Shown: positions 2,058-30,509, counted from the stretch's first letter. The stretch is DNA of 64,000 nucleotides from Candidatus Dojkabacteria bacterium HGW-Dojkabacteria-1 (GCA_002840365.1 PHAO01000001.1:15594-79593), one strand, 5' to 3'. The notes: generated by a model not told the origin, from the letters alone. Translations and numbers: made by a program.

Positions 2058-2089
2058 TTTCAACAATGATTTAAATGGGAATATTCAAT

Positions 2090-2163
2090 GGGAGTAGATG
2101 GAATCGAACCATCGACCACGGCTTTATAAGAACCGCGCTCTAACCAACTGAGCTATACTCCCA
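2090..2163 (-). tRNA. tRNA with a UAU anticodon, predicted to be a tRNA-Ile that decodes AUA.
   Basis: The reverse complement is GGGAGTATAGCTCAGTTGGTTAGAGCGCGGTTCTTATAAAGCCGTGGTCGATGGTTCGATTCCATCTACTCCC. It has a 7-bp acceptor stem, D-arm GCTC/GAGC, anticodon stem CGGTT/AGCCG with loop CTTATAA (anticodon TAT), and T-arm GATGG/CCATC. No CCA is encoded. Confidence 0.6.
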
Positions 2164-2215: not shown

Positions 2216-4738
2216 CTAAAAATTAATAGGTGGGAATGGACTTGGTGACTGAGGTTTCTCTTCTACTTTTTTATCCAAATCAGACCTTCTGTTTATATCA
2301 AGGTTTACGATATTTACATCCCTACCATATTTAAGTCTAGACATCTGTTTAATAATTCTTGCAACCTCAGTATTCGATTTCATATCAAATCCACTCTCAG
2401 GGAATTTAGGACCATACCTAGTATCCAACGAAAACGGACTTGGATACGAACCATTATTAAGCATCTTTACATAGTAATGACCCATTCCTTGATTTATTAA
2501 ATCTGTTGCTTTTACATATGATTCAAACTGAGGCTCTAAGAAATTTCCATCATCAGTACCACATCTTGCGATAAAGAGAGATCCAACGTTACCAAAAACA
2601 GCCCCTTTTATATTCTCAGGTAGCTGACCTATATATTGATGTGCAAGTGTGAGATTGAGTTTGTATTTTCTTGCTTCTGAAAGAATAGAGGTAAACTCAT
2701 CTGTAGCAAAATTTTGGAACTCATCTGCATAAAAGAAGAAGTCTTTTCTCTGATCTTCAGATATATTTTCTCTACTCAACGCAGCAGCTAGCATTTTTTG
2801 TACCAAGAGCAACCCCAAAAAGGACATATTCTCTTCACCTAAAAGACCCTTTGCTAGATTTACAATTAATATCTTACCTCCATCCATAACCTCTCTAAAA
2901 TCAAAGGATGATTGAGATTGCCCTATTACATTCCTAATCGCTAGGTTCGTAGTAAATTTATCAAACTTAGAGATAAAGTAACCCAAACTCTCAGATTTGG
3001 TCTTTTGATCTGTCTTTGCAACCTGGTCTACCCAATATCTTCTAACTAACTCATCTTTAATTATTGGAAGCCACTTTTCTTGTACCCATTTTTCATCCTG
3101 TAATATTCTAACTACCTCTATTAATGTCGAACCTTTTTCACTCATAGCAGTTAACATTGCATTTCTTACTGCCTGCTGCATCATAGGACCAACATATCCT
3201 TGATTATGAGGATCAAATAATCGTATAAGTAAGGCGATAAAGCTATTTACTATCTGATGCATATGCTGCTCATTGTAATATTCCATAATGTTTAAACCAA
3301 AAGGTCTTTCAAAATCTGCAGCATTGAAATATATAACATCCTCTACTCTCTCTGGTGGTATTCTTTCTAATATCATTTCAGCAGTTTGACCATGGGGATC
3401 TATGAAACAAACACCATCACCATTATAGATGTCTTGTATTATCATTCTTGTCATAAGCCAAGATTTACCAGTACCTGTTTGACCTAAAATATAACTATGC
3501 CTTCTTCTATCCTCCCTTTGGAAACATATCGCTTTTACCTTATCTCTAAACACATTGTTACCAACCCACACGGTATCTTTTGATTTAATATCAGAACTAA
3601 TGACATTGTCTGCAGGAATTTCCCTTGCAAGTAGCCAGTTAATATTAGGAGTTGTTATTTCTTTGTTAGGGAAGTGATATATAGTTGCCAACTCTTCGAC
3701 ATTCAGGATACTTACTTGTTCAATAGAACTTCTCCTATATACAACATCCAACATAAATTCCTTCTCTTGCTCCTTACCTTTTATTGATATTTTCTTAAAC
3801 CTATTTATCCCTGGGTTACTGAATTGGTCAAAGGCACCCACTATATTGTCCAAATGCATATTAGCAAGGGATTCATCAGATGCTGTTGTAACAATTCTAA
3901 TATCTGTATTAAAACCATTTTTAGAAACCTTTTTACTAATACCTTGTAATTTCTCCTGGCTTACATTTATTTTTTTCTTTTCAGGGTCTGAGTTGTTGTT
4001 CTCAACCTTTTTTACAAAAGAAGCACCATTCTTTTGCCACTTACTATCACTTGGAGAAATAACTACTTGAATCATAGCACCCTCCCCTTCAGACATTTTG
4101 CTTAGTGTACTAAGGATATTGGCAAGAGGATCTCCTGTAAAATCTTCAGATACTTTTATTGGATTATAGCTATCATCATCAAGTGCTAAACGTGTGAATG
4201 CAACTTTCGAATTATCTCCAAAGATGTTGTAATCATCTACCTTTTTAACATCTGCATCTTGATATGAACCTAGTATTTGTTTTTCAACTAAATCTCCTAA
4301 CTTCTTAGGGCTATATACATAGAATTTAATCTCTCCTGGTAATGCCATTATCTCAAAACTAATTGAATTACTAACTGTGAATTTCTCTGCAAAGCCCTTT
4401 CCTTTACCACCAATACCAACAAGATTAGCAAACATTTTTTCGGCCACTCCTACTTCTGTTTCGTTCCCTCTTGGTACACGAACCTCATACAAGGTCCAAT
4501 CTTTTGCTTTGTCGTTTCTATCCTTCTTTTGTAGTTTTTTTCTTATCCTAAAGAATGCAAAGGCTCCTAGTCCTGCAATCAAAACAAGAAGTACAAGTAT
4601 ACCCCATGGAAAAGTAAAACCAGAGCCTGTCATTTCGCCATATGTATCTTTTGGATATTGCTTTGGGTCCGCTATTATTACTTCATCATCTCTGTTTGAT
4701 GGCATTGGACCTATTTGAGCAAGAGTATATGATTTCAT
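2216..4738 (-). CDS. Type IV secretion-type P-loop ATPase (VirB4/TrbE or VirD4/TraG-like; FtsK-HerA superfamily) with an N-terminal transmembrane segment.
   Basis: Walker A GQTGTGKSWLM lies near residue 420 and Walker B FFYADEFQNF near residue 670, with a downstream LTLAHQYIGQL motif. A single transmembrane helix (FTFPWGILVLLVLIAGLGAFAFF) lies near the N-terminus. The layout (Walker A about 420 aa in) resembles VirB4, while the DEFxNF box resembles T4SS coupling proteins. Confidence 0.55.
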   Translation of the reverse strand: MKSYTLAQIGPMPSNRDDEVIIADPKQYPKDTYGEMTGSGFTFPWGILVLLVLIAGLGAFAFFRIRKKLQKKDRNDKAKDWTLYEVRVPRGNETEVGVAEKMFANLVGIGGKGKGFAEKFTVSNSISFEIMALPGEIKFYVYSPKKLGDLVEKQILGSYQDADVKKVDDYNIFGDNSKVAFTRLALDDDSYNPIKVSEDFTGDPLANILSTLSKMSEGEGAMIQVVISPSDSKWQKNGASFVKKVENNNSDPEKKKINVSQEKLQGISKKVSKNGFNTDIRIVTTASDESLANMHLDNIVGAFDQFSNPGINRFKKISIKGKEQEKEFMLDVVYRRSSIEQVSILNVEELATIYHFPNKEITTPNINWLLAREIPADNVISSDIKSKDTVWVGNNVFRDKVKAICFQREDRRRHSYILGQTGTGKSWLMTRMIIQDIYNGDGVCFIDPHGQTAEMILERIPPERVEDVIYFNAADFERPFGLNIMEYYNEQHMHQIVNSFIALLIRLFDPHNQGYVGPMMQQAVRNAMLTAMSEKGSTLIEVVRILQDEKWVQEKWLPIIKDELVRRYWVDQVAKTDQKTKSESLGYFISKFDKFTTNLAIRNVIGQSQSSFDFREVMDGGKILIVNLAKGLLGEENMSFLGLLLVQKMLAAALSRENISEDQRKDFFFYADEFQNFATDEFTSILSEARKYKLNLTLAHQYIGQLPENIKGAVFGNVGSLFIARCGTDDGNFLEPQFESYVKATDLINQGMGHYYVKMLNNGSYPSPFSLDTRYGPKFPESGFDMKSNTEVARIIKQMSRLKYGRDVNIVNLDINRRSDLDKKVEEKPQSPSPFPPINF

Positions 4739-4806
4739 AAAAGAATGGACAGATTAAACATATCTATTATACAAAGAATATCACACTTGAGGATTGTAAT
4801 CGAGTA

Positions 4807-5103
4807 TTAAGAAGGAAGTTCAGCACCCCTTCTCTTGGAGTTTATGTAATTTTTCCAAACTAAAGAACTAGTTAAATCATTACCTAATTCGGGGAAATCT
4901 TTACCTACTTTTTCATCATTTAAAGCTGATTGAATTTGGGAACCTACTTTATGAGATTCTAAAGGTTGAATACCATTGGTTGGAGCTTGTGTCGCTGGTT
5001 GAATATTGTATTCACTTTCTACTCGTGGTAGTTCTGCAGTCAAAGGGGAAGCCCCTCCCTCTACTACTGGCAATTGTTGTATTAATTCTTTTTCGTTTAT
5101 CAT
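4807..5103 (-). CDS. Hypothetical protein of 98 aa with low-complexity, Pro/Gln-rich sequence.
   Basis: It is an open frame co-directional with its neighbours and has no recognisable motif. Confidence 0.3.
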   Translation of the reverse strand: MINEKELIQQLPVVEGGASPLTAELPRVESEYNIQPATQAPTNGIQPLESHKVGSQIQSALNDEKVGKDFPELGNDLTSSLVWKNYINSKRRGAELPS

Positions 5104-5115
5104 AACCTATAATAA

Positions 5116-5565
5116 TTATATCATAAATTCTCTCTTTTCCAAGTGTAACTCTCTTTCTAAATCTCTTTTCTTCTCCTGAAGTTTTTTCTCATACTTTTTC
5201 TTACCTCTTGCTAAACCAATTTCTACTTTAAGATTAGGACCTTTAGAATAGATACTCAAAGGAATCAAAGCTAAGTTTCCCTGCTTCACTTTACTCTCTA
5301 AGTATACCAATTCTCTCTTTTTTACCAAGAGCTTTTTAGATCTCGCAGAATCATAATCAGGGGATCCATCGTATTTGTACTTAGGGATATCTGCATTTAC
5401 AAGCCACAGCTCTCCCCCTACAACCTTTACATACGAATCTCCTAAATTACACCTTCCATCTCTTACAGATTTTACTTCTGCACCAGTAAGAGAAATTCCT
5501 GCTTCTAATTTTTCAAGCACTTCATAATTAAAAAGGGCTTTCTTGTTAACAATTTTCATGCCCAA
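5116..5565 (-). CDS. smpB: SsrA-binding protein SmpB.
   Basis: The N-terminus KIVNKKALFNYEVLEKLEAGISLTGAEVKSVRDGR matches the SmpB consensus (…IA.NKKA…Y.I.E..EAGI.L.G.EVKS.R). The length fits (149 aa) and the C-terminal tail is basic. Confidence 0.85.
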   Translation of the reverse strand: MGMKIVNKKALFNYEVLEKLEAGISLTGAEVKSVRDGRCNLGDSYVKVVGGELWLVNADIPKYKYDGSPDYDSARSKKLLVKKRELVYLESKVKQGNLALIPLSIYSKGPNLKVEIGLARGKKKYEKKLQEKKRDLERELHLEKREFMI

Positions 5566-5587
5566 TTATATCATCAAAAGGAGGGAA

Positions 5588-7867
5588 CTATAATCGAATC
5601 TTCCAAACAGTGGAAGAGTCTAACATATACAAAGTTTTTTGATCTCTGTTTACAACAAAGTCTCTTACATTTTCAAACACCTTTTCTCTACTACCCCTAT
5701 ACACATATTGATTTCTTAAAACAGCTTGATTAGGATGCCTTATCTCTCCTCCACCCTCTATTGGCTTAACCAATCTAACAATTCTCCTATCTTCACTATC
5801 AAAGACATACAAATCATAGTTTAGGTCTCCTCTTGTATATCCATATGTAAGATTTTTAAACTCTCCATCTAATCCTACAATGTCTAATCTTGCAGGAATT
5901 TGTTTACTTTCAAAATAGCTATAGATATACCTCTTTAATCCGTCTGCTCCTGAAGTAAGTATATATACACTCAAATCAGCCATAATGTCATTCGCTTGTT
6001 TTAAAGATTCTTCCTTAATATATCCAAAAGAAAGACCATATCCTGTTCCAAAATTGTTAGATTTCAACAAAACTCCTGCATCTCTATCTAGGATATATAC
6101 ATTGTCTGTATCAGTTAATACCGCAAATTCAGCAATATCATTTGCCCCAATATTATCAATCCCTAATCCTGTTAATTTTGCAAATGGTTTGAATCCTCCC
6201 TCACTATCATACTCTGCTCTTACTACACCAACTTTCAAATCTACAACAAAAATACCACTTCTACCCGTATATATCATTGTAGGTTCTTGGAGTATTCGAT
6301 CAGGGTCCGACAATCTTAGAACTTCTTTGTTGTAAAGTGAAACTCTAAATACTGCCTTAAGTCCAGAATCTACTACAAGAAGATACTCGTTTGCTCTTGA
6401 ATCTTGATAAATTGCAATATCTTGAGGTTTAGAACCCTCACCAAAAGCAAGCCTAGTATCTATGAATGATTCAATAGATCCATCGGAATCTACAAGACCG
6501 ACTCTCTTGTAAAGGTTATCTTGAATACCCAAGACTCTTCCTTCAAGCTGTTTTAATTTTTCAGAATCTTTCTCTCCTAGTTTTTCAGGTATATTTCCAA
6601 GTTCTGACTGTGCTTTAAAAAGTAGCATTTCAGCACCACTCCTATCTGTTCTCGCTTTCTCTTCAGCAGATGTAACAGACGTTTCTACACTACTAAATAT
6701 TTCATTTGCTTGTTTACTAATAGCCCGTGCTTCTTTCTGATCTATTGTAAATTTTGCACCACCAACGATAACTACAATACCTAAGAATACTAGTCCAGCA
6801 ATCTTAAATCTCTCTATCTTCTTGTTCTTTATCTTGTATCCATCTACTTTAAAACCTTTGAATTCATTCTTTCTTGCGAGATTTATATCTGACTGAGAAA
6901 ATTTTGCAGATACTTTTTTGTACCACCTCTGCTTTGCAAATTTCTCATTTAGATTAAGAAGTATGCCTTTGCTAATTCTCTTTATCGAGTACCATACCTT
7001 TCTAAAAATTTCTTTAACTCCTTCAAACAGAGGTTTTAATTTAGCAAGCATTGGAGATACTTTTTCTCCAATTCTAAGCAAAAATGTTTTTAATGGTAGA
7101 AACCAATTCTTCAAATCAAATCTCCTTTCTTGCCTTACAGCCTTAGCTTCAACCTCTTTTTTTTCAACAACTATCTCACCTTTTTCATCTATTTTCACAT
7201 CAGACTCAATTAGCGCTACTTCCTGTTCATCTAATTCCTCTCCCTTTGTGAATATTAATATGCCTTCCCCATCTCCTAATTCGTGAGCCATATCATCCAA
7301 TCTTTCTAGTATAGATTTTGAATTTGGAAGACCAGTTAAACTACTCATACTGTTTTTAACAAAACCCTTGGTAGAAGCAAGAAGTATATCCTCTTCCTCA
7401 AGTAGTAAACCTGCTGTTTTAGCACCTTTTTTGGAGAGCATCTCATGTATATCAACTATCTTTCCCTTTTTGTAAATATATATGTCACAATCACCCAAAT
7501 ATCCTACATACAGACCAGATGAGCCTGAAACAAATACAGAAAAATTAATGTCTACACCATGATCAGAAATATTTTTGTCATTTGTAATTAATTGCTTTAT
7601 CCTTCTTGTTGCTTCATTTAGAGCTATCTTCAATGCTTCATTTGTAGAATCAGCTTTCGAATATTCAAAACCATCAACTAAACCATCCCATGCAAATTTG
7701 GCAATGTTAGCCCCTGGAATATCAACTTCGCTTTTAACCGAGAGAAGTCCATACATTTCGATATTTTTGTCGTGCTTACTTCTAACAGGTCTAGTATAGT
7801 GGAATACTCCTGTATAAAGCTTCTTTTTGTCTGAATTGTTTAAGTATTGAGAGGCAGTAATATACAT
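5588..7867 (-). CDS. Large bitopic membrane protein, hypothetical. It has a possible degenerate PP2C-like N-terminal domain and a repeat-rich extracytoplasmic C-terminal region.
   Basis: The cytoplasmic N-terminal ~200 aa contain ...VFVSGSSGLYVGYLGDCDIYIYKKGKIVDI..., reminiscent of the PP2C GDSR block. A transmembrane helix (IAGLVFLGIVVIVGG) follows at about residue 350, and the C-terminal 400 aa are rich in G/D/Y repeats. Confidence 0.45.
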   Translation of the reverse strand: MYITASQYLNNSDKKKLYTGVFHYTRPVRSKHDKNIEMYGLLSVKSEVDIPGANIAKFAWDGLVDGFEYSKADSTNEALKIALNEATRRIKQLITNDKNISDHGVDINFSVFVSGSSGLYVGYLGDCDIYIYKKGKIVDIHEMLSKKGAKTAGLLLEEEDILLASTKGFVKNSMSSLTGLPNSKSILERLDDMAHELGDGEGILIFTKGEELDEQEVALIESDVKIDEKGEIVVEKKEVEAKAVRQERRFDLKNWFLPLKTFLLRIGEKVSPMLAKLKPLFEGVKEIFRKVWYSIKRISKGILLNLNEKFAKQRWYKKVSAKFSQSDINLARKNEFKGFKVDGYKIKNKKIERFKIAGLVFLGIVVIVGGAKFTIDQKEARAISKQANEIFSSVETSVTSAEEKARTDRSGAEMLLFKAQSELGNIPEKLGEKDSEKLKQLEGRVLGIQDNLYKRVGLVDSDGSIESFIDTRLAFGEGSKPQDIAIYQDSRANEYLLVVDSGLKAVFRVSLYNKEVLRLSDPDRILQEPTMIYTGRSGIFVVDLKVGVVRAEYDSEGGFKPFAKLTGLGIDNIGANDIAEFAVLTDTDNVYILDRDAGVLLKSNNFGTGYGLSFGYIKEESLKQANDIMADLSVYILTSGADGLKRYIYSYFESKQIPARLDIVGLDGEFKNLTYGYTRGDLNYDLYVFDSEDRRIVRLVKPIEGGGEIRHPNQAVLRNQYVYRGSREKVFENVRDFVVNRDQKTLYMLDSSTVWKIRL

Positions 7868-7872
7868 GTATA

Positions 7873-8130
7873 TTAACCTAAAAGAATTATAAAGGTTGCT
7901 AACAAAGCAACAACCAAGGATACCAATAAATTAATATATACCAAAGCCTTTATCTTCCCAGCATTTTCCGATTCTACAGTATCTACCAATATCTTAACCT
8001 TTAATACGAGCATCAGTGAGTAAAAGATATTCCCTATCAAGATCACAATCAAAGGTAACTTAAGGACATCACCAAGATTAATAGTGAATCTCATCGTATC
8101 CTCAAAAAGTTTTTCATATATTCCATCCAT
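7873..8130 (-). CDS. Small two-transmembrane membrane protein.
   Basis: It is 85 aa with two hydrophobic helices, and its stop is adjacent to the start of the upstream bPH gene. Confidence 0.4.
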   Translation of the reverse strand: MDGIYEKLFEDTMRFTINLGDVLKLPLIVILIGNIFYSLMLVLKVKILVDTVESENAGKIKALVYINLLVSLVVALLATFIILLG

Positions 8131-8131
8131 C

Positions 8132-8764
8132 TTAGATACCTCCTTTTTGTTTAATTTCTAATAAATCGTTCAAGATATCCTGCATGTCTCTTGGTTTAGG
8201 TAGCATTGTTAATACAAAATCTACTCCATGACCTGCAGTATCAATATCCAAATTACCAACATCAAAGAATGTTCCTATAAAACCTACATGCTGATGTGTA
8301 ATATCCTCTATCTTTTCTAATTGAGCTTCAGAGTATGAGTGGAAAAATGCGTTGTTCATCTTAACAATTACAATTCTCTGATCAGTCACAATATGAATAG
8401 TGTAATACCATTTAAGAAAGGTTGTAAGGAGAAGGGTGGAAGCAACCCCTATCGAAAGAACGAACATGCCTGTATACAATATTGGTGTACCAAGGATTGG
8501 GAAAGAAGAAGACAGTAAAAGCAAAATCAAAGGCAAAAGAAGAACTAGTAATGATATGAATAAATCGGGGACATAAGCAATCCAATGCCTTCTAACCATT
8601 AATACTATCTCTTCATCCTTGTCTCTTCCGTAGAAACTGATTTTTTTAGGAAATGCAGAAAAACCTGACAGACGAATTTTTTTCTCTTCCTCATACACCC
8701 TATCAACGAAAGATTTGTTTGATTTAAGGAACTTTTTGGGGATATCTTTTCTAAGCTGTTTCAT
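8132..8764 (-). CDS. Membrane protein with a bacterial PH-like (bPH_2/DUF304, YdbS-like) domain.
   Basis: A basic N-terminus is followed by two transmembrane helices and then ...YTIHIVTDQRIVIVKMNNAFFHSYSEAQLEKIEDI..., typical of membrane-flanked bPH domains. Confidence 0.45.
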   Translation of the reverse strand: MKQLRKDIPKKFLKSNKSFVDRVYEEEKKIRLSGFSAFPKKISFYGRDKDEEIVLMVRRHWIAYVPDLFISLLVLLLPLILLLLSSSFPILGTPILYTGMFVLSIGVASTLLLTTFLKWYYTIHIVTDQRIVIVKMNNAFFHSYSEAQLEKIEDITHQHVGFIGTFFDVGNLDIDTAGHGVDFVLTMLPKPRDMQDILNDLLEIKQKGGI

Positions 8765-8804
8765 ACCAAAAGGATATCAAAAAACTCCCTATTTAACAAT
8801 ATAT

Positions 8805-10628
8805 TTACTTCTTATGAATATTTATATGTACGAACCCACTCTGAGGTATTCTTAAGTGGCCTGGTGCACGTAGGTTAAATATTGTTTTAAAGTCATTCCC
8901 ACTCATGGTTATAACTCCAGCATTAGTTGTAAATACAACGGAAGTAGAGCTACCATTACTACTGGATACTATAGCAGAGGATACGGAAGTTACTGGTTTT
9001 GCTGCTAAAGATCTTAATTCTGCATGAGTATATGGGTTACCTGTTGAGTGACATGCATCAAATATTGGCACTATCCTACTATCATTTCTATTCTTTGCCA
9101 CCCATACTTGATACGCATTAATTAAATCTGACATTTCTGCCTGGGAAAGCCATGGATTTCTACCACACGTTGAACTTGTCTCGCTATATGTTTGCCTGTA
9201 CCACGCTTTGTAGAACCAAGATACATTAGAGAGTCTGTCCCATGCCCTACTCATCCAATCACCATTTCCAGTGCCATCTGTAGTATCCCAACCTATTTGA
9301 TTACCCCAACCTCCATGAACGGCTGCATACTGCGCAGAGAATACTGCACCTGCAGCATCGGTAAGAACAATACCTCTAGTTGCTTCAACAGCTGTTTTCC
9401 ATGCCCCAGTTTTAGGCGAAGGACCAGCTACCTGACAACTTTCTGTTGTACATATTGCTTTACGACCATTCTGTGTATAGTTAATAGCATATGTTCTTGC
9501 AGCTATTGCCTGGGCTTTTAATACCTCCATAGGCCATGACTCAGGAACTTCTTGAATTCTCAAAAGATAATCATCTTCAAAATTGAGGGTACCATATGTT
9601 GTAGTTGGTATATTGACCATAATATTTTCGATAGCACCACTTACAACAACAGTGCCTGTTCTAAAGACCCTTCCTGGATAGTATGCACCAAGAATTTGCT
9701 GATAGTTTTGTCCTGCATTTGCCCTAGCTCTTGCCCCCCACTGACTCATTCCATTCCTGTGTGTGTAAGCACCAATTGAGAAAACCCCAAAGGAACCAAC
9801 GGGTGCGTTTGCGTTAAATCCCGCTAATGTTGAGTTGTAATCTCCACTAATAGGGACAGAATCAGGATTTACATGTGTACCTCCCTGCCTTACGATTATT
9901 AATTGATATTGTAAATCTGATAGTTCAGCAGAGAGACCATTAATCGTTTTTACGACATTTTTCTTATTAGCCAATTCACTATTCAATTCTTTCTGAAGCT
10001 TGTTTCTCTCAGCTAAAACCAATGCATATGAATCATCTAAATCTTTCTTCTGCTCATCAAGTTCTTTCTTCTCAAGCTCTAGACCTTCTTTCATTTCACT
10101 AAGCGATGTAAACTCCCCATTTATCTTCTCAATATCAGCTCTTAATATTGATATTGCACTCTTTTTAACAAAAAGATTCTGTAAAAGATTGTCTAAATTA
10201 CTAAAGGAAAATATTAGCTGTGCACTATCATGCCTTGATTGCATATATAACTCTGTAGAAACCATATCAAAAAGTTCCTTTTTAACATTTAGTAACTCCT
10301 GTTTTTCATCTATTAGTTTTAATTTCTCTTCAATAGCTACATTTTTAACATCAATCTCTTGTTGTAATTTGGTTATTTCAGCATTCAAAAGATTAACCTT
10401 TTCACTTAGAGTGTAATTACTCCCACTTATCTCAGCTATTCTTTTCTCGATATTAGAAAGAGAAGATTTGTTTTTGTTCAATTCTTCTGTCTTCTTGTTT
10501 ATCTCATTCTCTAACTCCTCTATCGTATTCGAATATACAGGAGAAGACCAAGAAAGCACGAACAGTGCTACAAAAGATGAAAGGAGGGAAAGTATTAAAA
10601 ATTGTTGAGCAGATCTATACCTGGACAT
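8805..10628 (-). CDS. Secreted SpoIID/LytB-domain protein (putative peptidoglycan lytic transglycosylase) with an N-terminal coiled coil.
   Basis: A signal peptide MSRYRSAQQFLILSLLSSFVALFVLSWSSPVYS is followed by about 200 aa of heptad-rich coiled coil. The C-terminus carries ...LKAQAIAARTYAINYTQNGRKAICTTESCQVAG...AVHGGW, matching the SpoIID/LytB amidase-enhancer domain. The start was trimmed to the ATG at 10628. Confidence 0.65.
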   Translation of the reverse strand: MSRYRSAQQFLILSLLSSFVALFVLSWSSPVYSNTIEELENEINKKTEELNKNKSSLSNIEKRIAEISGSNYTLSEKVNLLNAEITKLQQEIDVKNVAIEEKLKLIDEKQELLNVKKELFDMVSTELYMQSRHDSAQLIFSFSNLDNLLQNLFVKKSAISILRADIEKINGEFTSLSEMKEGLELEKKELDEQKKDLDDSYALVLAERNKLQKELNSELANKKNVVKTINGLSAELSDLQYQLIIVRQGGTHVNPDSVPISGDYNSTLAGFNANAPVGSFGVFSIGAYTHRNGMSQWGARARANAGQNYQQILGAYYPGRVFRTGTVVVSGAIENIMVNIPTTTYGTLNFEDDYLLRIQEVPESWPMEVLKAQAIAARTYAINYTQNGRKAICTTESCQVAGPSPKTGAWKTAVEATRGIVLTDAAGAVFSAQYAAVHGGWGNQIGWDTTDGTGNGDWMSRAWDRLSNVSWFYKAWYRQTYSETSSTCGRNPWLSQAEMSDLINAYQVWVAKNRNDSRIVPIFDACHSTGNPYTHAELRSLAAKPVTSVSSAIVSSSNGSSTSVVFTTNAGVITMSGNDFKTIFNLRAPGHLRIPQSGFVHINIHKK

Positions 10629-10664
10629 TAAAGAAATTATACCATGAACACACAAAAGGCAAAG

Positions 10665-10982
10665 TTAGGCTCCGACAAACTCAAGAATTGCTACAAGTAT
10701 TGCTCTAATTAGAAAAAGAAATACCAACCCTATTACTGCCCATGTTAGAGTTCCTTGTGCTTGCTGTTTCTTTGCAGGATCTCCACCGGAGATAATCCAC
10801 ATGTATCCACCATAGATTAGCATTGCGACTGCAATTAGAGCACCAATAGGCATAATTAAATCAAAAAGATTTTCAATAGGTCCAAATATCTCCTCTATTC
10901 TTGGAGGAGCAGCATTTGAATATTGAGCATGTACAGGAGAGACAAAAAGCTTACTAATTCCTAATACTATACTTTCTATCAC
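10665..10982 (-). CDS. VirB2/TrbC-like (T4SS-type) pilin-family small membrane protein, paralog 5.
   Basis: A signal-like N-terminus (…VSPVHAQ) is followed by two transmembrane helices separated by the conserved loop YGGYMWIISGGDPAKK. It shares the core motif A.A..IY.G(Y/F).(Y/F)I.(S/A).GD(P/E).K…A(V/I)(V/I)G(L/F) with its four neighbours. Confidence 0.5.
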   Translation of the reverse strand: MIESIVLGISKLFVSPVHAQYSNAAPPRIEEIFGPIENLFDLIMPIGALIAVAMLIYGGYMWIISGGDPAKKQQAQGTLTWAVIGLVFLFLIRAILVAILEFVGA

Positions 10983-10984
10983 AG

Positions 10985-11260
10985 TTATATTCCCAAAAAA
11001 TTATCTAATATGAATTGTATAACAGATGGTGCTAAAAATACCAGTATCATTCCTAAGAGAGAAAATATCAATGACCTGTTTGCTGCAGCAATCTTTTTTT
11101 CATCACCCATAGACACTATATACTGAAAACCAGCTACAACAATCATAATGACAGCAAAAAGAGCTGCAAAATTAATTGCCCAGTTAAGAAGCTCAACAAT
11201 GAAGCCTGCTAAATCTGTATGTGTTACTGTCTCAATTTTAGTTATATCTATCACTTCCAT
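10985..11260 (-). CDS. VirB2/TrbC-like pilin-family small membrane protein, paralog 4.
   Basis: It is 91 aa with two transmembrane helices and the loop AGFQYIVSMGDEKK, matching the same paralog motif. Confidence 0.5.
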   Translation of the reverse strand: MEVIDITKIETVTHTDLAGFIVELLNWAINFAALFAVIMIVVAGFQYIVSMGDEKKIAAANRSLIFSLLGMILVFLAPSVIQFILDNFLGI

Positions 11261-11267
11261 AGTTAAT

Positions 11268-11298
11268 AAAAAAAGAAGGCCCCAAAAGGGGCCTTTTT
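11268..11298. terminator. Intrinsic bidirectional terminator hairpin between pilin paralogs.
   Basis: AAAAAAAG, then GGCCCC-AAAA-GGGGCC, then TTTTT: a perfect 6-bp GC stem flanked by an A-tract and a T-tract. It lies directly 3' of the 119-aa pilin gene on the minus strand. Confidence 0.6.
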
Positions 11299-11311
11299 CA
11301 AATTCTAAGAA

Positions 11312-11671
11312 TTACTTCAAAATGTTTGTTAATACAAACTGAACAAGCATTACTGCAATAAAACATACAACTAGACCTACAATTGCGAATGTCAATGTTT
11401 TTGTTGCTTTCTCTACTTTTCCTTCATCTCCACTAGCTGAAATGTACATGTATCCAGAGTAGATTAACATACCTACTGCTGCTAATGCTGCCAAACCGAT
11501 TGCCCAGTTAAGCATTGTGATAATCCATGAGTCGAGTGTAGACCCTACCCCATCTATACCACCCAACCAATCAGAGGCTCTCTTTTGTGCAAAAGCTTCT
11601 GTTAAAAGGCCTGAGAATGCAACATATGTTGCAACAACACCACTTGATATCTTTGCTAAAGTATTCTTCAT
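11312..11671 (-). CDS. VirB2/TrbC-like pilin-family protein, paralog 3. This is the candidate major subunit.
   Basis: It has a clear Sec signal peptide (MKNTLAKISSGVVATYVAFSGLLTEAFA|Q), then two transmembrane helices with the loop YSGYMYISASGDEGK. It has its own upstream AT-rich region (11672-11738) and a strong terminator immediately downstream. Confidence 0.55.
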   Translation of the reverse strand: MKNTLAKISSGVVATYVAFSGLLTEAFAQKRASDWLGGIDGVGSTLDSWIITMLNWAIGLAALAAVGMLIYSGYMYISASGDEGKVEKATKTLTFAIVGLVVCFIAVMLVQFVLTNILK

Positions 11672-11738
11672 TTTGTATTTATATAATATTATATTTAGCT
11701 ACCAGATTATATTATAGCTAGAGCACAAATTGCAACAC

Positions 11739-12080
11739 CTAGCTTAGAATATTATCCAAAAGAAATAGTACGATCGTTCTTGCTAAAAAAACTATTACCA
11801 AGCCAACGACTGCTGCTGTTAGTGCACCACTACCCTTTTGTATCTTCTCTGGATCACCACTTGCTGTGATAAACAAAAAGCCAGCATAAACAATCATAGC
11901 AACCGCAACTAGCGCAGATAAACCTACCAATGCATTTAAACCAAAAATTACAATATCCATAAATCCCTCGAAAGTTGTAAATCCATCTTTAACGACTGGA
12001 GCATTGAAGGTATATCCACCAATAGTAATTCCTAAAGGTATTACGTTTTTCTTTCTATCTTCCACCGATATTAATACCAA
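11739..12080 (-). CDS. VirB2/TrbC-like pilin-family protein, paralog 2.
   Basis: It has two transmembrane helices with the loop YAGFLFITASGDPEK. It overlaps the upstream paralog by 26 nt, so the true start may lie downstream. Confidence 0.45.
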   Translation of the reverse strand: MVLISVEDRKKNVIPLGITIGGYTFNAPVVKDGFTTFEGFMDIVIFGLNALVGLSALVAVAMIVYAGFLFITASGDPEKIQKGSGALTAAVVGLVIVFLARTIVLFLLDNILS

Positions 12081-12387
12081 ACAAATTACTTATTAAAAGC
12101 AATATAGCTACAGACATAAGAATAAATAGAAAACCTATTATTGCATTTGTGATAACCTCTTTTCCCTGCTTAAGCTTATCCGGGTCTCCCTGGCTTGTCA
12201 TAAGCTGATACGCTGCAAAAGCAAGTAATGCAAATACAGAAAATACTGCCAATGGGATAGCTAAAGATATTACTGAATCCATAAAACTACCGACATCAGA
12301 TGATTCTGAAAGGTTATTTACTTCTTTTAATGCATCACTAAGTGAGTTCGCGTATATTTTTGTACTGTTAATCATAAACACTCGCAT
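12055..12387 (-). CDS. VirB2/TrbC-like pilin-family protein, paralog 1.
   Basis: It has two transmembrane helices with the loop YQLMTSQGDPDK and the same downstream A(I/V)IG(F/L) block. Confidence 0.45.
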   Translation of the reverse strand: MRVFMINSTKIYANSLSDALKEVNNLSESSDVGSFMDSVISLAIPLAVFSVFALLAFAAYQLMTSQGDPDKLKQGKEVITNAIIGFLFILMSVAILLLISNLFGINIGGR

Positions 12388-12419
12388 TATACTAAAAAAA
12401 TGATATATAGAAAACTAGG

Positions 12420-15400
12420 TTATAAAATAGCATCTTTACATATGTGCCTGTAATCACAATATTTACATTTAAACATATCTGGAGTAGCTTCAAAATCCTT
12501 TTCTTTAATACTATTAATTACTTCATATACATTTTCTGAGGCTCTTTCCTTTCTTTTTTCAGAAATATCTACCTCAATTTCACTACCATGCTCTACGAAT
12601 ACATACTTAGCGCTTACTACTTTTACTCCAAGACTTTGTTCTGCAAATATTGCATACAGAGGTAGTTGCAAATCCTTCTTTATATCAGTTTTACTCTTTT
12701 CTTTACCTGTTTTGTAATCAATTATCTCAACATGGGCAACCCCATTAACAGTATCTACCAAATCCATCCTATCTATCTTTCCTACAAATGAACTGTCCTT
12801 GAGATTAACTGTAAATGATTCCTCTAATCTGTATGGTACCTGTTTCTTTTTATAAACTTTCTTGTAAAACTCCTTCATCATTTTTTCTCCACTCTCTTTT
12901 CTTTTTTCTTCGTGACTCTTACTTTCATAACCAAAAGATACCCAATGCTTGTTAAACAGGGTTACCAAATCTTCCTCAGTTGGCAAATCTGACAATCCAA
13001 GACCTTCCTTTGCAATCCTAATCATATTGTAAAAATCTCTTAAAGCATTATGTACCGTTGTACCGAAAGATAAAGAAGCACTAGGTTTAGAAGGGAGTTG
13101 TAATACATACGCATACTCATACTTTTTTGGACACTCCTGGTATATATTTATCTGAGAGTAACTAACTCTTTTACCTACAGATAATTTCATATCCCTAGGT
13201 AGAATACTATCTTCTTTTGCTTCATACATACTTCCAACTTTATCATTTTTTTGAACCTTTGGATTATTAAATTCTTCAGAAATATCTCTATCAAGTAATT
13301 CATAAAGGAAGAGGCTACCCTTTTTCTTCCTTTTAGCACCTCCATAGAAGTTCGCAGCTGTTAAGAATAGCTTCTCTTTTGCACGAGTAGAACCGACATA
13401 GAAAAGTCTTCTTTCCTCTTGTAGATGTTCTTCTTTTTCATCTAATCCGGATAGTGATTCTTGTATAAGGCCATCTGGTATTGGAATAGTATCTCTCCTA
13501 GTTTGTGATGGGAACCTATCTGAAACAAGGTTAACAAGGAATACGCAAGGAAATTCTAATCCCTTTGCACTGTGAACAGTCAATATATTAACAGCATCAT
13601 AATCAGACATTTCCATTTGATCTACAAGCGGTGACTCCCCTATCTCTATACTGTAATTAAGATAGTCTACATATTCATATATGTTTGAATCTGCATTGTT
13701 TTTTTCATATTCTTGTAGATAATTAAAGAATTTCGAAATATTGGTAACTTTAAATTGTGTTTGTTGCGAATCCTCCTCTAAAAGACTATCTATATATCCA
13801 CTCTCTTTTGCGAAGTCATATAAAATTTCTCCCGTACTTTTACCCTCTTTTATTTTCTTAAAGCTATCATTTAATATCGTCAAAAGGAGAGATAAGCCTG
13901 CCCTTGCATTTTCAGAAAGTATTTTATTAAGGATATTACTTGAATTTATATCAATAGATTCAGAATCAACCTCTCCTAATCTAATCTCTAGCAAATTTTC
14001 TACTTCCTCTAATACACAAACCCTATTCTCTCTAGCTAACCTATTTATCTCTATAAACTCTCTTGCAGAGATATTCCATATTGGGAGTGTAAGCAGTTTG
14101 TAAACAGAGATTTCATCCTTGTAGTCTACAAGAACTTTTAAAAAAGCAATTAAGAATTTAATCTCATCTCTTGAGTATAATCCTCTTGAACCACCAACTT
14201 TATATGGTATACCAACATATCTAAGATTTTTGATTATTGTATCTGCATGAGCATTAGCTCTTACTAAAATTGCAATATCTGAAAATTTATATTTTCTATC
14301 AGGTATTAACTCTACAAAGCTAGCCTGCCCTTCCTTGTCAAATTTCTGAACCCTATCTGAAACATTTCCCTCACCATACCCTGTTAGTTCTAAGATTTCC
14401 TTTGCTACCCACTCTGCCTCACTATCCTCATCTTGTGCTACAACCAAAGATACAACATCATCATCTTCTTCAAATGCGATTTTAGATATTAATCTCTTCT
14501 CTATCTTTTCGGTTACTTCTAATCTATATGGATTGTTGTGTGATATTAAAGAATATGAAGCATCTAATATCTCTTGACGAGAACGATAGTTTTCGGTTAA
14601 TACAACCTCTTTAGCCTTAGGATATAGCTGTTTAAATTGTAGAATATTTGAAATAGCTGCTCCTCTGAATTTGTATATTGCTTGATCATCATCCCCTACT
14701 ACAGTTAAATTAGGATTTATCTTTCCTATCTTTTCTGTATCATTTTTAGGGTCTAACCCACAAAGTATATTAACAAGTACATTTTGTGTATGATTTGTAT
14801 CTTGGAATTCATCAACTAGTATGTATTTAAATCTTTCCTTATACTTCTTAAGAACATTTGGTTTCTCTCTAAAAAGACGTATGGTAAGAATTATTAAATC
14901 TCCGAAATCTATCTTAGAATTCTCTATCTTTAATTTTGTATATTCATCGTATACAGTAGCTAATTCTAAAATGTCAGCATATTCCTCTTTTTGTTCCTTT
15001 GTTCTTTTAGGAAGTTTCTTTGCAAAAGAAATATAGTCTGTGGGAGAGACATCTTCATCTTGTAATCTAGAGAAGTGTTTAAGGATATCATCAATGAATT
15101 TTGTAGGGTTACCATGAGGTCTAAATTTGTTGAGTGAGAATTTAAAAAGATTCTTTCTAAAGAATATATAGCTTTGAGCAGAAGACATCATAGAGTAGTT
15201 TGTATCTAACCCTATATATTGTCCCTCCTGTCTTAATATTCGATCACAAAAAGAATGAAAAGTTGATATCCATATATCTCCATAGCTTAAAGGAAGATTC
15301 TCATCTACTCTGCTGAGCATTTCTTCCGCTGCTTTGTCTGTGAAAGTTAGGGCAAGTATTTCGTTTGGTTTTGCCCACTTGCTATTTATTATATGCAATA

Positions 15401-15512
15401 TTCTTTGTGTAATTACTGCAGTTTTTCCAGTTCCCGCACCAGCAATTATTAAAAGTGAACCTCTCTTGTGTTGTACTGCAATTTTTTGTTTCTCATTCAG
15501 ATTTATATTCAT
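12420..15512 (-). CDS. ATP-dependent helicase/nuclease: a UvrD/PcrA-type superfamily 1 helicase fused to a C-terminal RecB-like PD-(D/E)xK nuclease with a Cys cluster (AddA-like).
   Basis: An N-terminal UvrD Walker A (LIIAGAGTGKTAVITQRI) is followed by the helicase motifs. The C-terminus carries ...IIDYKTGKEK... and CKYCDYRHICK, matching the Cas4/AddB-type Fe-S nuclease signature. Confidence 0.75.
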   Translation of the reverse strand: MNINLNEKQKIAVQHKRGSLLIIAGAGTGKTAVITQRILHIINSKWAKPNEILALTFTDKAAEEMLSRVDENLPLSYGDIWISTFHSFCDRILRQEGQYIGLDTNYSMMSSAQSYIFFRKNLFKFSLNKFRPHGNPTKFIDDILKHFSRLQDEDVSPTDYISFAKKLPKRTKEQKEEYADILELATVYDEYTKLKIENSKIDFGDLIILTIRLFREKPNVLKKYKERFKYILVDEFQDTNHTQNVLVNILCGLDPKNDTEKIGKINPNLTVVGDDDQAIYKFRGAAISNILQFKQLYPKAKEVVLTENYRSRQEILDASYSLISHNNPYRLEVTEKIEKRLISKIAFEEDDDVVSLVVAQDEDSEAEWVAKEILELTGYGEGNVSDRVQKFDKEGQASFVELIPDRKYKFSDIAILVRANAHADTIIKNLRYVGIPYKVGGSRGLYSRDEIKFLIAFLKVLVDYKDEISVYKLLTLPIWNISAREFIEINRLARENRVCVLEEVENLLEIRLGEVDSESIDINSSNILNKILSENARAGLSLLLTILNDSFKKIKEGKSTGEILYDFAKESGYIDSLLEEDSQQTQFKVTNISKFFNYLQEYEKNNADSNIYEYVDYLNYSIEIGESPLVDQMEMSDYDAVNILTVHSAKGLEFPCVFLVNLVSDRFPSQTRRDTIPIPDGLIQESLSGLDEKEEHLQEERRLFYVGSTRAKEKLFLTAANFYGGAKRKKKGSLFLYELLDRDISEEFNNPKVQKNDKVGSMYEAKEDSILPRDMKLSVGKRVSYSQINIYQECPKKYEYAYVLQLPSKPSASLSFGTTVHNALRDFYNMIRIAKEGLGLSDLPTEEDLVTLFNKHWVSFGYESKSHEEKRKESGEKMMKEFYKKVYKKKQVPYRLEESFTVNLKDSSFVGKIDRMDLVDTVNGVAHVEIIDYKTGKEKSKTDIKKDLQLPLYAIFAEQSLGVKVVSAKYVFVEHGSEIEVDISEKRKERASENVYEVINSIKEKDFEATPDMFKCKYCDYRHICKDAIL

Positions 15513-16381
15513 TGCTTAGCAAGTTCTTTTAATTTTTCTATTTCCTCACTCATTGTTGATGCACTCTTTAAAGCTGGTGTTTCAAGTATGAATGGGATAT
15601 TAGTAAACTCTTTTCTGTGGAGAATTTTTCGAATAGTATCACTACCTAATTTCCCATCTCCCAAATTTGCATGCCTGTCTTTGTTAGAACCATGAAGCAT
15701 CATAGAGTCGTTTAGATGAATAGCCTTTACCCTCTCAAAAGTTAGTGTCTCACCTATTTCCTCTACAATACTATCCATATCATTGTTCCAATCATATCCT
15801 GCAGCATATGTATGCTGAGTATCTAATACAAACCCAACTCTCTCTCTCCCTTTGGAACCATCTCTCATTTGAAAAAGCTCTGTAAAACTTCTACCCATAT
15901 TTCCACCAGTTCCTGCTGTAGATTCGATAAGTAACCACTGTTTTCCTCCCACTTCATCTAATACCCAATCAATACCGTAAGAGATTCTTTCCAGGCTGTC
16001 TTCATAATTGAGCTCCTTTTGAGAACCTGGGTGAAAACAAACTCCCAATATTTCTACATCCAAACCTTCCTTCTCTATTAATTCCCCCACTCTATTTGCA
16101 AAATCTAAGTATACTGCTAATCCCATTTTTCCTAGATGAAATAGCTGCTTATCTTTTCTAGCAAGATTTGTAAGATATATTCCATGTATTAAAATCTTTT
16201 TTACGATACTACCTTTCAGTGTTTTCACAAACATATTAATATCTTCCTCGGATATCTTCTTGGTTACCCATCTCATAGGGGCAGTAGGCATCATTTGAAT
16301 ACTGTTTATCTGATACTTATCACCCTCTTTTATTGCATTTTCAATTCCCCCACTTGAGGATACGTGTGCTCCTAGATACAT
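15509..16381 (-). CDS. nfo: Endonuclease IV (AP endonuclease family 2).
   Basis: The N-terminus MYLGAHVSSSGGIENAIKEGDKYQINSIQMMPTAP and the downstream H/D/E metal-ligand pattern (HGIYLTNL…HLNDS) fit Nfo. The ATGA at its stop overlaps the start of the helicase gene. Confidence 0.8.
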   Translation of the reverse strand: MYLGAHVSSSGGIENAIKEGDKYQINSIQMMPTAPMRWVTKKISEEDINMFVKTLKGSIVKKILIHGIYLTNLARKDKQLFHLGKMGLAVYLDFANRVGELIEKEGLDVEILGVCFHPGSQKELNYEDSLERISYGIDWVLDEVGGKQWLLIESTAGTGGNMGRSFTELFQMRDGSKGRERVGFVLDTQHTYAAGYDWNNDMDSIVEEIGETLTFERVKAIHLNDSMMLHGSNKDRHANLGDGKLGSDTIRKILHRKEFTNIPFILETPALKSASTMSEEIEKLKELAKQ

Positions 16382-30176: not shown

Positions 30177-30509
30177 ATGCTTCCAAAGAAATACCGATTA
30201 GAACCAAAGAATCTCCAAAAGATTTACAAAGAAGGTAAGAAGTTCCGTGGCGAATATGGAATGCTTGTTGTAAAAGAATTAAATATTAACAATCCCCAAT
30301 TTGCTTTTGTAGTTAGCAAAAAGATTGGAAATGCTGTTCAAAGGCACAAAATGACTAGACTACTAAGACAGATAACTACAGAATTTTTAACAAAGGTCGA
30401 AGATAGTAAATTAGCATCTCAGTATATAGCATTTAAGTATAGTGATAACTATGAAGAACTTAAAAAAGAGTACCTTAAACAGCTTAAGGATGCTTTTAGA
30501 ATTGCCTAA
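30177..30509 (+). CDS. rnpA: Ribonuclease P protein component.
   Basis: It is basic and 110 aa, with an RnpA-like FAFVVSKKIGNAVQRHKMTRLLRQ motif. It lies between rpmH and yidD. Confidence 0.8.
   Translation: MLPKKYRLEPKNLQKIYKEGKKFRGEYGMLVVKELNINNPQFAFVVSKKIGNAVQRHKMTRLLRQITTEFLTKVEDSKLASQYIAFKYSDNYEELKKEYLKQLKDAFRIA

Follow-up and report, generated by a model that had tools for sequence, protein, structure and literature searches.

VirB2/TrbC-type pilin genes near a coupling-protein-like ATPase gene in an origin-proximal gene block of a Dojkabacteria genome

We analyzed 64,000 nt of the genome of Candidatus Dojkabacteria bacterium HGW-Dojkabacteria-1 (GCA_002840365.1, PHAO01000001.1:15594-79593; the whole stretch is referred to as the window), and in particular a block of minus-strand genes at positions 2216 to 16381. 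An earlier reading, made from the sequence alone, had taken this block for a candidate DNA-transfer or uptake apparatus. Between a repair operon and a cluster built around a SpoIID-type peptidoglycan enzyme, the block holds an array of five genes for putative VirB2/TrbC-type pilins of type IV secretion systems (T4SSs), approximately 6 kb from a gene for an ATPase that resembles type IV coupling proteins (T4CPs); this placement of the Dojkabacteria array is what our analysis adds. The most probable interpretation (probability of approximately 0.68) is that the block is simply a stretch of chromosome near the origin, on the leading strand, in which unrelated functions lie side by side, and that the pilins serve a dispersed T4SS-like system of the Patescibacterial type. 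The observation behind the sequence-only reading is real and its interpretation is partly supported; the block is not a self-contained DNA-transfer machine.

Gene neighborhoods were compared across 80 loci with orthologs of the ATPase gene, taken from GTDB species representatives across the candidate phyla radiation (CPR). Fetched loci are designated by L-numbers, and their flanks were annotated with profiles built from the window proteins.

The pilin array

The array consists of five small open reading frames (ORFs) and a hairpin:

10665-10982, minus strand: pilin 1, 105 aa; PF18895, E 8.3e-15, 55.1 bits; TrbC, 25.3 bits
10985-11260, minus strand: pilin 2, 91 aa; PF18895, E 1.2e-9, 38.5 bits
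11276-11295, minus strand: terminator-like, G+C-rich hairpin followed by a T run; it separates pilin 3 from pilin 2 and lies downstream of pilin 3
11312-11671, minus strand: pilin 3, 119 aa; PF18895, E 3.7e-12; NF045849, 42.7 bits, over the cutoff
11739-12080, minus strand: pilin 4, 113 aa (longest ORF); PF18895, E 2.4e-12
12055-12387, minus strand: pilin 5, 110 aa, most divergent of the five; PF18895, E 1.2e-5, 25.7 bits, just below the cutoff

All five small ORFs at 10665-12387 matched PF18895 (T4SS_pilin; E between 8e-15 and 1e-5), and four of them scored above its curated cutoff of 26.6 bits (55.1, 38.5, 46.6, and 47.2 bits). TrbC/VirB2 was the second-best Pfam family for three of the five. 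The NCBIfam family NF045849, a pilin-like family of Mycoplasma integrative and conjugative elements (ICEs; cutoff, 40 bits), was matched by pilin 1 at 31.6 bits in addition to the match of pilin 3. Each of the five proteins (91-119 aa) has exactly two hydrophobic 19-residue segments (residues 39-57 and 82-100 in pilin 1), and a G-D..K..G loop is invariant in all of them, pilin 5 included, at pairwise identities of 24-35%. A holin or bacteriocin identity found no support in Pfam or PHROG searches. These profile matches support the assignment of the five proteins as predicted VirB2/TrbC-type T4SS pilins, as had been proposed from the sequence alone. The arrays of Dojkabacteria relatives contain five to seven pilin genes. 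Because the longest ORF of pilin 4 overlaps pilin 5 by 26 nt, the true start of pilin 4 probably lies further downstream.

Pilin 3 differs from its neighbors in several respects. As read from the sequence, it is the only one of the five with a clear, canonical-looking Sec-type signal peptide. A promoter-like site (11735-11706) lies upstream of it, and the terminator-like hairpin downstream of it has an 8-bp stem with six GC pairs (AAGGCCCCTTTTGGGGCCTT, then CTTTTTTTAT). The hairpin appears to be lineage-specific, because no equivalent was found in the relatives L001 or L005. Given the signal peptide, the promoter-like site, and the hairpin, pilin 3 may be a candidate for the major subunit.

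Pilin-like domains also occur at the end of larger proteins. One case is the divergent Dojkabacteria locus L007 (337-6633), where a secreted protein of 317 aa ends in a pilin-like two-helix domain; SbcD- and SbcC-like genes come next, and SpoIID after them. A 332-aa protein bearing the pilin domain at the end of the seven-gene array of L001 resembles this 317-aa protein.

No T4SS core detected in the window

Pfam scans of all sizeable ORFs, from which very divergent homologs could escape, detected no VirB4, PrgI/VirB3, TrsD (TraC-like), VirB6 (TrbL), VirB8, or relaxase in the 64-kb window. No window ORF encodes a protein with PF03135, AAA_10, or P-loop_TraG. When an authentic CPR VirB4 (from L032) was used as the query, phmmer gave no match at E ≤ 10 in the six-frame translation of the window or in the Dojkabacteria loci, and the TrsD-like protein of L032 had no match in the window. 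Left of the window, the adjoining 10 kb were read from L086, a contig whose DivIC protein is identical and whose genes are arranged in the same order as in the window; they encode RuBisCO, EF-P, FtsH, PolA, and a ligase, and contain no VirB4. The RuBisCO large-subunit gene (489 aa; L086, 10642-12111) lies immediately beyond DivIC in this contig; in the more distant L001, EF-P adjoins DivIC directly.

In one canonical core from Microgenomatia, PrgI-TraC-like-VirB4, the neighboring genes encode RecA, RNase Y, HU, and PBP2, and the 10 kb around it have no pilins. This arrangement of a core among housekeeping genes, away from pilins, indicates that the parts of the T4SS are dispersed in CPR bacteria. 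A database protein search for a Dojkabacteria VirB4 was negative: among the 120 matches listed, all 81-100% identical to the query, the named ones belonged to Roizmanbacteria or other Microgenomates. In the available parts of a survey of Patescibacteria, Table S1 has two VirB4-positive Dojkabacteria genomes, and the preprint names the class (Quinonero-Coronel et al. 2025).

Family and identity of the ATPase

The last protein-coding gene of the block encodes the ATPase:

2216-4738, minus strand: membrane-anchored ATPase, 840 aa, of the DUF8128+DUF87 family by Pfam and NCBIfam matches

Its Walker A motif is GQTGTGKS (at residue 419) and its Walker B motif is FFFYADEFQNF (at residue 667). Pfam matches were DUF87 (29.9 bits) and TrwB_AAD_bind (22.3 bits; cutoff, 20.5), whereas TraG-D_C (PF12696; 18.5 bits) and AAA_10 (16.9 bits) remained under their cutoffs of 22 and 27.5, respectively, and CagE_TrbE_VirB (PF03135) and P-loop_TraG gave no Pfam match. 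NCBIfam matches were TraD-type. The DUF8128 domain (PF26449) was not reported by the Pfam scan itself; it is known from the precomputed annotations of relatives, which carry PF26449, PF01935, PF02534, and PF10412.

Sequence comparison with PDB entries and plasmid proteins pointed to the T4CP branch and not to VirB4. The PDB sequence matches of the ATPase with E < 0.1 were DotL and TrwB only, never VirB4, and the family profile reached DotL at 3e-6 and TrwB at 6e-3. Among plasmid homologs (523 records), all those with names were T4CP-type, FtsK, or DUF87 proteins, and none was VirB4; TraM-recognition-domain protein was among the annotations of plasmid homologs. The CPR family profile matched both domains of the DUF87 T4CP-like protein of the pLS20-like Bacillus plasmid CP120602.1 (1e-84) but did not match the VirB4 of the same plasmid (Walker B, DEAW), and it scored only 1.4 bits against the authentic CPR VirB4 of L032, a protein that carries P-loop_TraG, AAA_10, DUF87, and CagE_TrbE_VirB, with all three VirB4 signatures present. 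The Pfam and NCBIfam signatures, the PDB matches, the plasmid annotations, and the two profile tests led us to reject a VirB4 identity.

The ATPase is best described as T4CP-like by sequence (related to VirD4, TraG, and TrwB), apparently with a VirB4-like two-domain layout. Its assignment to the T4SS ATPase superfamily, and not to the HerA proteins of defense systems, is supported. Of what the sequence-only reading had said of this protein, the superfamily and the TraG/VirD4-like part hold, whereas the VirB4-like part fails at the sequence level. An AlphaFold model of the ATPase (predicted local distance difference test score, pLDDT, 66) shows a confident extra N-terminal domain and helices at residues ~490-605, between Walker A and Walker B, where pLDDT is <50. 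The fold resembles VirB4, HerA, and TrwB in Foldseek searches.

The DUF8128+DUF87 family is very large (20,032 representative clusters). Across the 120 best database matches, which are Dojkabacteria (WS6) wherever the source names an organism, identity with the ATPase was 69-96%; it was approximately 47% in divergent Dojkabacteria loci. Plasmids of Bacillus that are pLS20-like, numerous haloarchaeal plasmids, and Bacillus phages (SPO1 gp27.4, phage G gp156, and CP-51) encode full-length homologs, and phrog_5156 matched the ATPase at 6e-82. In CP120602.1, the homolog lies upstream of TcpC/TcpD/TcpE-like genes and a VirB4. The gene for this VirB4 is apparently split by a frameshift at the junction between the start and the end of the record. 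That the DUF8128 N-terminal domain of this T4CP-like protein appears, from sequence homology, to be common to plasmid and phage proteins is an addition of the present analysis.

Neighborhoods of the ATPase gene

Across the 80 loci, pilins were found within 10 kb of the ATPase gene in Dojkabacteria only (L001, L005, L018, and the near-identical L086). In these pilin-bearing loci, the order of the genes for SmpB, Xer, DivIC, EF-P, FtsH, PolA, and DNA ligase is equally conserved. The order ATPase-Xer-DivIC is kept in approximately 19 loci of Dojkabacteria and Microgenomatia. In ABY1, Paceibacteria, Berkelbacteria, Saccharibacteria, and most Microgenomatia, the ATPase gene is located beside genes for DnaX, ribonucleotide reductase, NrdR, tRNA synthetases, and small proteins of no known family. 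Weak pilin-like matches near Paceibacteria orthologs proved to be ribosomal protein L21. No relaxase or channel gene is present in the window, and the 80 ortholog loci are flanked mainly by housekeeping genes.

VirB4 was found within 10 kb of an ATPase ortholog in one of the 80 loci (L032). There (4449-14259), the gene for VirB4 (584 aa; 11480-13234) is adjacent to a 218-aa TrsD-like gene, and genes for PBP2, a 1056-aa fn3 protein, and a PilX_N-like protein lie between the two ATPases. The synteny that the sequence-only reading had called for is thus kept within Dojkabacteria, and the proximity of pilins and ATPase is lost in other classes. We infer that the linkage of the two is a class-specific accident of gene order. 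Among the fetched GTDB contigs (L009-L084), several with clearly CPR-type proteins are titled Gammaproteobacteria, Bathyarchaeia, Limisphaerales, Methylomirabilota, or Bdellovibrionales and are probably mislabeled or mis-binned.

Genomic setting of the block

The ORF listing confirmed the common orientation of the genes between 2216 and 16381: all are minus-strand genes and form an unbroken series of 14 protein-coding genes, running from 16381 down to 2216, and are separated by gaps of 1-68 nt or have small overlaps. GC content is even across the window (~34%). The genes for DnaN (26706-27827) and DnaA (28264-29736) are both on the minus strand, and rnpA (30177-30509), yidC (30760-31650), and jag/KhpB (31665-32183) are on the plus strand. 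Because of these orientations, the origin is placed near 30 kb, oriC being likely the intergenic region at ~29.7-30.2 kb, which makes the minus strand leading across the block. Leading-strand bias would fit as the explanation for most of the common orientation of the block, which lies 10-13 kb from dnaA/dnaN.

Beyond the 3′ end of the block, the following features were found:

464-538: tRNA-Met
579-1034, minus strand: DivIC/FtsB-like septum-formation initiator (PF04977, 36.5 bits), which adjoins Xer in relatives as well
1158-2057, plus strand: XerC/D-like tyrosine recombinase (Phage_integrase, 95 bits, with a SAM-like N-terminal domain)
2088-2163, minus strand: tRNA-Ile with anticodon TAT (ARAGORN), directly downstream of the ATPase gene, at the end of the minus-strand run

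The tyrosine recombinase and the two tRNA genes had already been recognized in the sequence-only reading, which did not mention DivIC. Isoleucine tRNAs with anticodon TAT (UAU) are uncommon in bacteria, in which AUA is mostly read by a lysidine-modified CAU tRNA. Because Xer is a conserved neighbor of the ATPase in Dojkabacteria and many Microgenomatia, it is a chromosomal gene and not the marker of a mobile element. An integrative mobile element bounded by tRNA and integrase genes was ruled out: the context of Xer, DivIC, and tRNA is chromosomally conserved across two classes, and GC content is uniform. A defense island was ruled out as well. The PADLOC matches were generic HerA Walker A matches (mad8, 46.6 bits) and a GajB-type UvrD similarity weaker than that to PcrA, and PADLOC found none of the Gabija/HerA defense partners GajA, Sir2, or others.

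Other genes of the block

The remaining genes of the block are as follows:

4807-5103, minus strand: hydrophilic protein of 98 aa, without a known family
5116-5565, minus strand: SmpB, tmRNA-binding protein (PF01668, 156 bits)
5588-7867, minus strand: bitopic PP2C/NHL membrane protein, 759 aa (AlphaFold model, pLDDT 79.4)
7873-8130, minus strand: DUF5657 protein, 85 aa, with two transmembrane (TM) helices at 15-33 and 66-84 (PF18901, 44.1 bits)
8132-8764, minus strand: bPH (membrane-flanked domain) protein, 210 aa, two TM helices (bPH_2, 19.5 bits, below cutoff)
8805-10655, minus strand: SpoIID/LytB-type peptidoglycan enzyme, 616 aa (PF08486, 55 bits, cutoff 23; TIGR02669, 102.4 bits, cutoff 83.3)
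12420-15512, minus strand: UvrD/PcrA superfamily 1 helicase fused to a Cas4/AddB-type PD-(D/E)xK nuclease, 1030 aa
15509-16381, minus strand: endonuclease IV-like AP endonuclease Nfo (PF01261, AP_endonuc_2, 104 bits), the first gene of the minus-strand run

Profile or fold searches reproduced the calls of SpoIID, UvrD-Cas4 helicase-nuclease, smpB, PP2C-like protein, and bPH that had been made from the sequence alone. The helicase-nuclease scored above the cutoffs of UvrD-helicase (PF00580, 259.6 bits), UvrD_C (PF13361, 185.5 bits), PDDEXK_1 (PF12705, 131.5 bits), and Cas_Cas4 (PF01930, 33.1 bits), and was best classified as PcrA/UvrD (TIGR01073 PcrA, 450 bits). Its four-cysteine cluster comprises Cys794 and C1016-x2-C-x5-C (residues 1016, 1019, and 1025). 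Because its gene overlaps nfo by 4 nt and because it scores best as PcrA/UvrD, the protein most likely acts in DNA repair, to judge from these sequence features.

The longest ORF of the SpoIID-like protein spans 8805-10655, and position 10628 given in the sequence-only reading corresponds to an internal start. With an N-terminal hydrophobic helix (residues 19-37) followed by an SMC-like coiled coil of approximately 210 aa (residues 43-251), the protein is predicted to be membrane-anchored or secreted. The bPH protein, with TM helices at 68-86 and 99-117, matched phrog_3707 ("membrane-flanked domain") at 6.7e-5.

The 759-aa protein had no Pfam match, PP2C included, and NCBIfam Stp1 scored only 16 bits. 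Its model consists of an N-terminal cytoplasmic PP2C fold, a TM helix at 356-374, and a C-terminal extracellular six-bladed NHL propeller. In Foldseek searches the N-terminal domain matched tPphA, PstP, STP, and PppA (E ~4e-7; target-normalized TM-scores of 0.52-0.59), and the propeller matched the PknD sensor, Pizza, and Brat-NHL. The PP2C-like domain may be a pseudophosphatase. The protein is 100% identical to CVU76_00110 of HGW-Dojkabacteria-1 and has 55 database homologs, among which identity falls to 39%, as compared with 69-96% for the ATPase. Close full-length homologs are confined to Dojkabacteria; a search with our own hidden Markov model (HMM) found shorter, divergent ones in some Levybacteria (589 aa in L024). 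The genes for SpoIID, bPH, DUF5657, PP2C/NHL, and SmpB form a separate conserved cluster, which in three Levybacteria loci directly follows the ATPase gene without pilins.

SmpB, which functions in trans-translation, is a housekeeping bystander of the block. The tmRNA gene (21931-22340, minus strand) lies approximately 16 kb from its partner gene smpB inside the block, and its predicted tag peptide is unusually long (26 aa, VENKLNAFASKLRAAFTAPLYAYNFA). The 98-aa protein had no match in Pfam, NCBIfam, PHROG, or PADLOC, and our own HMM search for it matched nothing in any fetched locus; L001 and L002 encode a protein of 94-97 aa at the equivalent position, which is a counterpart by position only.

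Comparison with known systems

The Saccharibacterium Southlakia epibionticum has an essential T4SS cluster (SEML1_0006-0019) that includes a pilin array and lacks a recognizable coupling protein or relaxase (Wang et al. 2023). In the survey of Patescibacteria, VirB4 was found in 2,417 of 3,035 genomes, a pilin gene was near virB4 in just 1,135 of 1,948 assemblies, and 441 VirB2 arrays of 2-11 genes had a mean identity of 25% (Quinonero-Coronel et al. 2025). The same survey counted 5,713 VirD4-like T4CP homologs in 2,918 of the 3,035 genomes, 148 of them near virB4, and found few relaxases and T4SS genes often close to dnaA (Quinonero-Coronel et al. 2025). According to a 2025 review, Patescibacterial systems are exceptional among monoderm T4SSs in having VirB2-like pilins.

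The locus analyzed here shares with these systems the pilin family (PF18895/PF04956), with five divergent tandem paralogs as compared with 2-11, the monoderm CPR host, the chromosomal location within approximately 15 kb of dnaA, the lack of a relaxase, and a T4CP homolog outside any VirB4 cluster. It differs in that the array is not beside VirB4, PrgI, TrsD, or VirB6. In S. epibionticum, homologs of peptidase and lysozyme are downstream of virB4, whereas the present array is flanked by the UvrD-Cas4 nuclease and the SpoIID-type enzyme. The suggestion that the arrangement is undescribed does not stand in view of this literature: Patescibacterial T4SS genes, pilin arrays of which many are not close to virB4, widespread unlinked T4CP homologs, proximity to dnaA, and the absence of relaxases were all published in 2023 and 2025. 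The main text of the survey has no description of this particular arrangement in Dojkabacteria.

With the T4CPs TrwB of R388, VirD4, TraG/TraD, DotL, and Cag-beta, the ATPase has in common an N-terminal membrane anchor and a P-loop domain with Walker A and B motifs and a possible helical insertion (Foldseek TM-score of 0.5-0.58 normalized to TrwB or Cag-beta). These T4CPs have two TM helices, whereas the ATPase has one, and they lack its extra N-terminal DUF8128 domain (~270 aa, residues ~80-350). In addition, the ATPase has no relaxase or T4SS partner nearby, is encoded on the chromosome, and belongs to a family that is very widespread in CPR bacteria. The proteins of pLS20-like and haloarchaeal plasmids and of SPO1- and G-like phages are homologous over the full length and both domains (tblastn covers ~75-81% of the query), but only at 21-28% identity, and while they belong to phages or mobile elements, the CPR gene is chromosomal and conserved. 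No demonstrated function of these plasmid and phage homologs turned up in the literature looked at.

VirB4 proteins (TrwK of R388; L032:11480-13234) likewise belong to the FtsK/HerA superfamily and have an N-terminal domain in front of the P-loop domain at the C terminus, a layout that the ATPase appears to have as well. Their Walker B is DEAW, whereas that of the ATPase is DEFQNF, and the ATPase gene has no adjacent PrgI or TrsD. As a possible analog of VirB1, the SpoIID-like protein has in its favor its predicted export or membrane anchoring and its position directly downstream of the pilin array in Dojkabacteria. However, VirB1 proteins are of the SLT or CHAP type and this enzyme is of the SpoIID type, and its conserved partners are bPH, DUF5657, and PP2C/NHL, a cluster that occurs without pilins in Levybacteria.

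Proposed function and alternative explanations

If the pilins serve a dispersed T4SS-like system, each would be inserted via Sec as a two-helix hairpin, and a VirB4-PrgI-TrsD core encoded elsewhere in the genome would extract and polymerize them into a surface filament or conduit, with the divergent paralogs as variant or minor subunits. Such a filament might function in contact or exchange with host cells. The ATPase would be a membrane-anchored, probably hexameric translocase that either feeds the T4SS-like system or acts alone. The SpoIID-bPH-DUF5657-PP2C/NHL genes would form a cluster for envelope remodeling and signaling, which could open the wall for a pilus, yet is conserved independently of pilins. 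The UvrD-Cas4-like nuclease and Nfo would act in DNA repair.

Several observations weigh against this interpretation. The VirB4 core was not located for this genome, and its existence rests on the survey tables for other Dojkabacteria. The top full-length Foldseek match of the ATPase was TrwK/VirB4 (E 4.5e-17 over ~900 columns, with a TM-score of 0.29 and a root-mean-square deviation of ~19 Å for what is a mediocre model), followed by HerA, Cag-beta, and TrwB, also with low TM-scores; a VirB4-like role for the N-terminal domain would still be compatible with this model. Three Levybacteria loci keep the ATPase gene beside the SpoIID cluster despite rearrangement, and this adjacency, which other Levybacteria lack, is the only sign that hints at a selected linkage with wall-remodeling genes. 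The divergent Dojkabacteria locus L007 also has repair genes (SbcCD) between a pilin-like gene and SpoIID, and recombination and competence genes occur near T4SS genes in ABY1 (Quinonero-Coronel et al. 2025), so that a DNA connection of the block cannot be dismissed.

The sequence-only reading regarded the whole block as one apparatus for DNA transfer or uptake, with power supplied by the ATPase, the wall opened by SpoIID, a conduit made of pilins, and DNA processed by the helicase-nuclease. The parts are adjacent and co-oriented with tiny gaps, and their arrangement is kept in four independent Dojkabacteria loci (L001, L005, L018, and L086) in which ATPase identity goes down to 47%. Moreover, repair nucleases recur beside pilin-like genes, as in L007, T4SS loci of ABY1 carry comF, recG, and radA, and uptake of nucleotides or DNA by a T4SS has been speculated for Saccharibacteria in the literature. 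We nevertheless consider a single apparatus unlikely. Housekeeping genes (SmpB, Xer, DivIC, EF-P, FtsH, and PolA) show just as much synteny in these loci, no pilins occur near the ATPase outside Dojkabacteria, and the SpoIID cluster exists without them; the helicase-nuclease overlaps nfo and is best classified as PcrA/UvrD, VirB4, VirB3, VirB6, VirB8, and relaxase were not found in the window, and the common orientation is what leading-strand bias predicts on this side of oriC. Slightly less credence is given to a module for division or septal remodeling and translocation, made up of the ATPase, SpoIID, the PP2C-like protein, bPH, DUF5657, Xer, and DivIC, by analogy with SpoIIIE, SpoIID, and SpoIIE at the Bacillus sporulation septum, to which the pilins would be unrelated neighbors. 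The retention of ATPase-Xer-DivIC in approximately 19 loci would agree with such a module, as would the Levybacteria ATPase that still adjoins SpoIID-bPH-DUF5657-PP2C/NHL after rearrangement, and the very strong conservation (69-96% across the 120 best matches) of an ATPase of the FtsK/HerA superfamily. However, a complete FtsK (4TM, alpha, motor, and gamma domains) is already encoded at 56234-58561, the closest non-CPR homologs of the ATPase are found on conjugative-type plasmids, on haloarchaeal plasmids, and in Bacillus phages instead of in division loci, and the linkage is missing from other Levybacteria and all more distant classes.

Lower still is the probability we assign to an envelope-spanning, T4CP-driven module of Dojkabacteria, and to some extent of Levybacteria, in which the DUF8128 ATPase, the coiled-coil SpoIID, bPH, DUF5657, and PP2C/NHL would use the pilins, with VirB4 acting in trans or not at all, and would take up or export nucleic acid at host contact, the DNA being processed by UvrD-Cas4. 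The least probable alternative is that the five small proteins are not pilus subunits and are instead two-helix membrane proteins that merely resemble VirB2 and have another role, for example as peptides of the holin or bacteriocin type or as variable surface proteins. No pilus has been visualized for any Patescibacterial T4SS in the literature, no core ATPase is encoded close to the array, short hydrophobic hairpins can score against profiles because of their composition, and the fifth copy is under the Pfam cutoff. On the other hand, four of the five exceed the PF18895 cutoff, one exceeds the cutoff of the Mycoplasma-ICE pilin-like family, TrbC/VirB2 ranks second for three, there is no holin or other PHROG match, and in S. 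epibionticum the homologous array is part of the T4SS cluster and is essential.

With the pilins taken as part of a dispersed Patescibacterial system, the locus reveals no new kind of machine. A leading candidate for the way in which CPR bacteria obtain material from their hosts is the Patescibacterial T4SS, which proved essential in the single species tested. With its parts dispersed, detection based on loci would undercount them. The DUF8128 T4CP-like proteins represent a large, uncharacterized family of translocases that merits a study of its own.

Other features of the window

Outside the block, three plus-strand genes encode an M14 carboxypeptidase that carries a Big_5 Ig-like domain (16841-18757), a protein with a weak match to camelysin/TasA-like Peptidase_M73 (18970-19560), and, at 19605-20120, a signal peptidase of type I (S26). 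By analogy, the pair of M73 and S26 proteins resembles SipW-TasA of Bacillus, which suggests a secreted fiber or protease that has its own signal peptidase. Between 20.5 and 26 kb are genes for several small proteins (130-270 aa) without family matches. Near the origin are a MASE3-like membrane sensor (23102-24055, minus strand) and an OmpR-type response regulator (26033-26761, plus strand).

At 34362-37455 (minus strand), a protein of 611 aa, whose Baseplate_J-like match is weak (26.5 bits), adjoins an actin-fold protein of the FtsA/PilM/MreB type (417 aa), which is an odd pairing. An envelope-polysaccharide-type cluster (46480-51376, minus strand) includes a 999-aa protein in which an NAD-dependent epimerase is fused to DUF4012, together with a protein bearing a PEGA domain (49472-50122) and a glycosyltransferase of family 4 (50168-51376).

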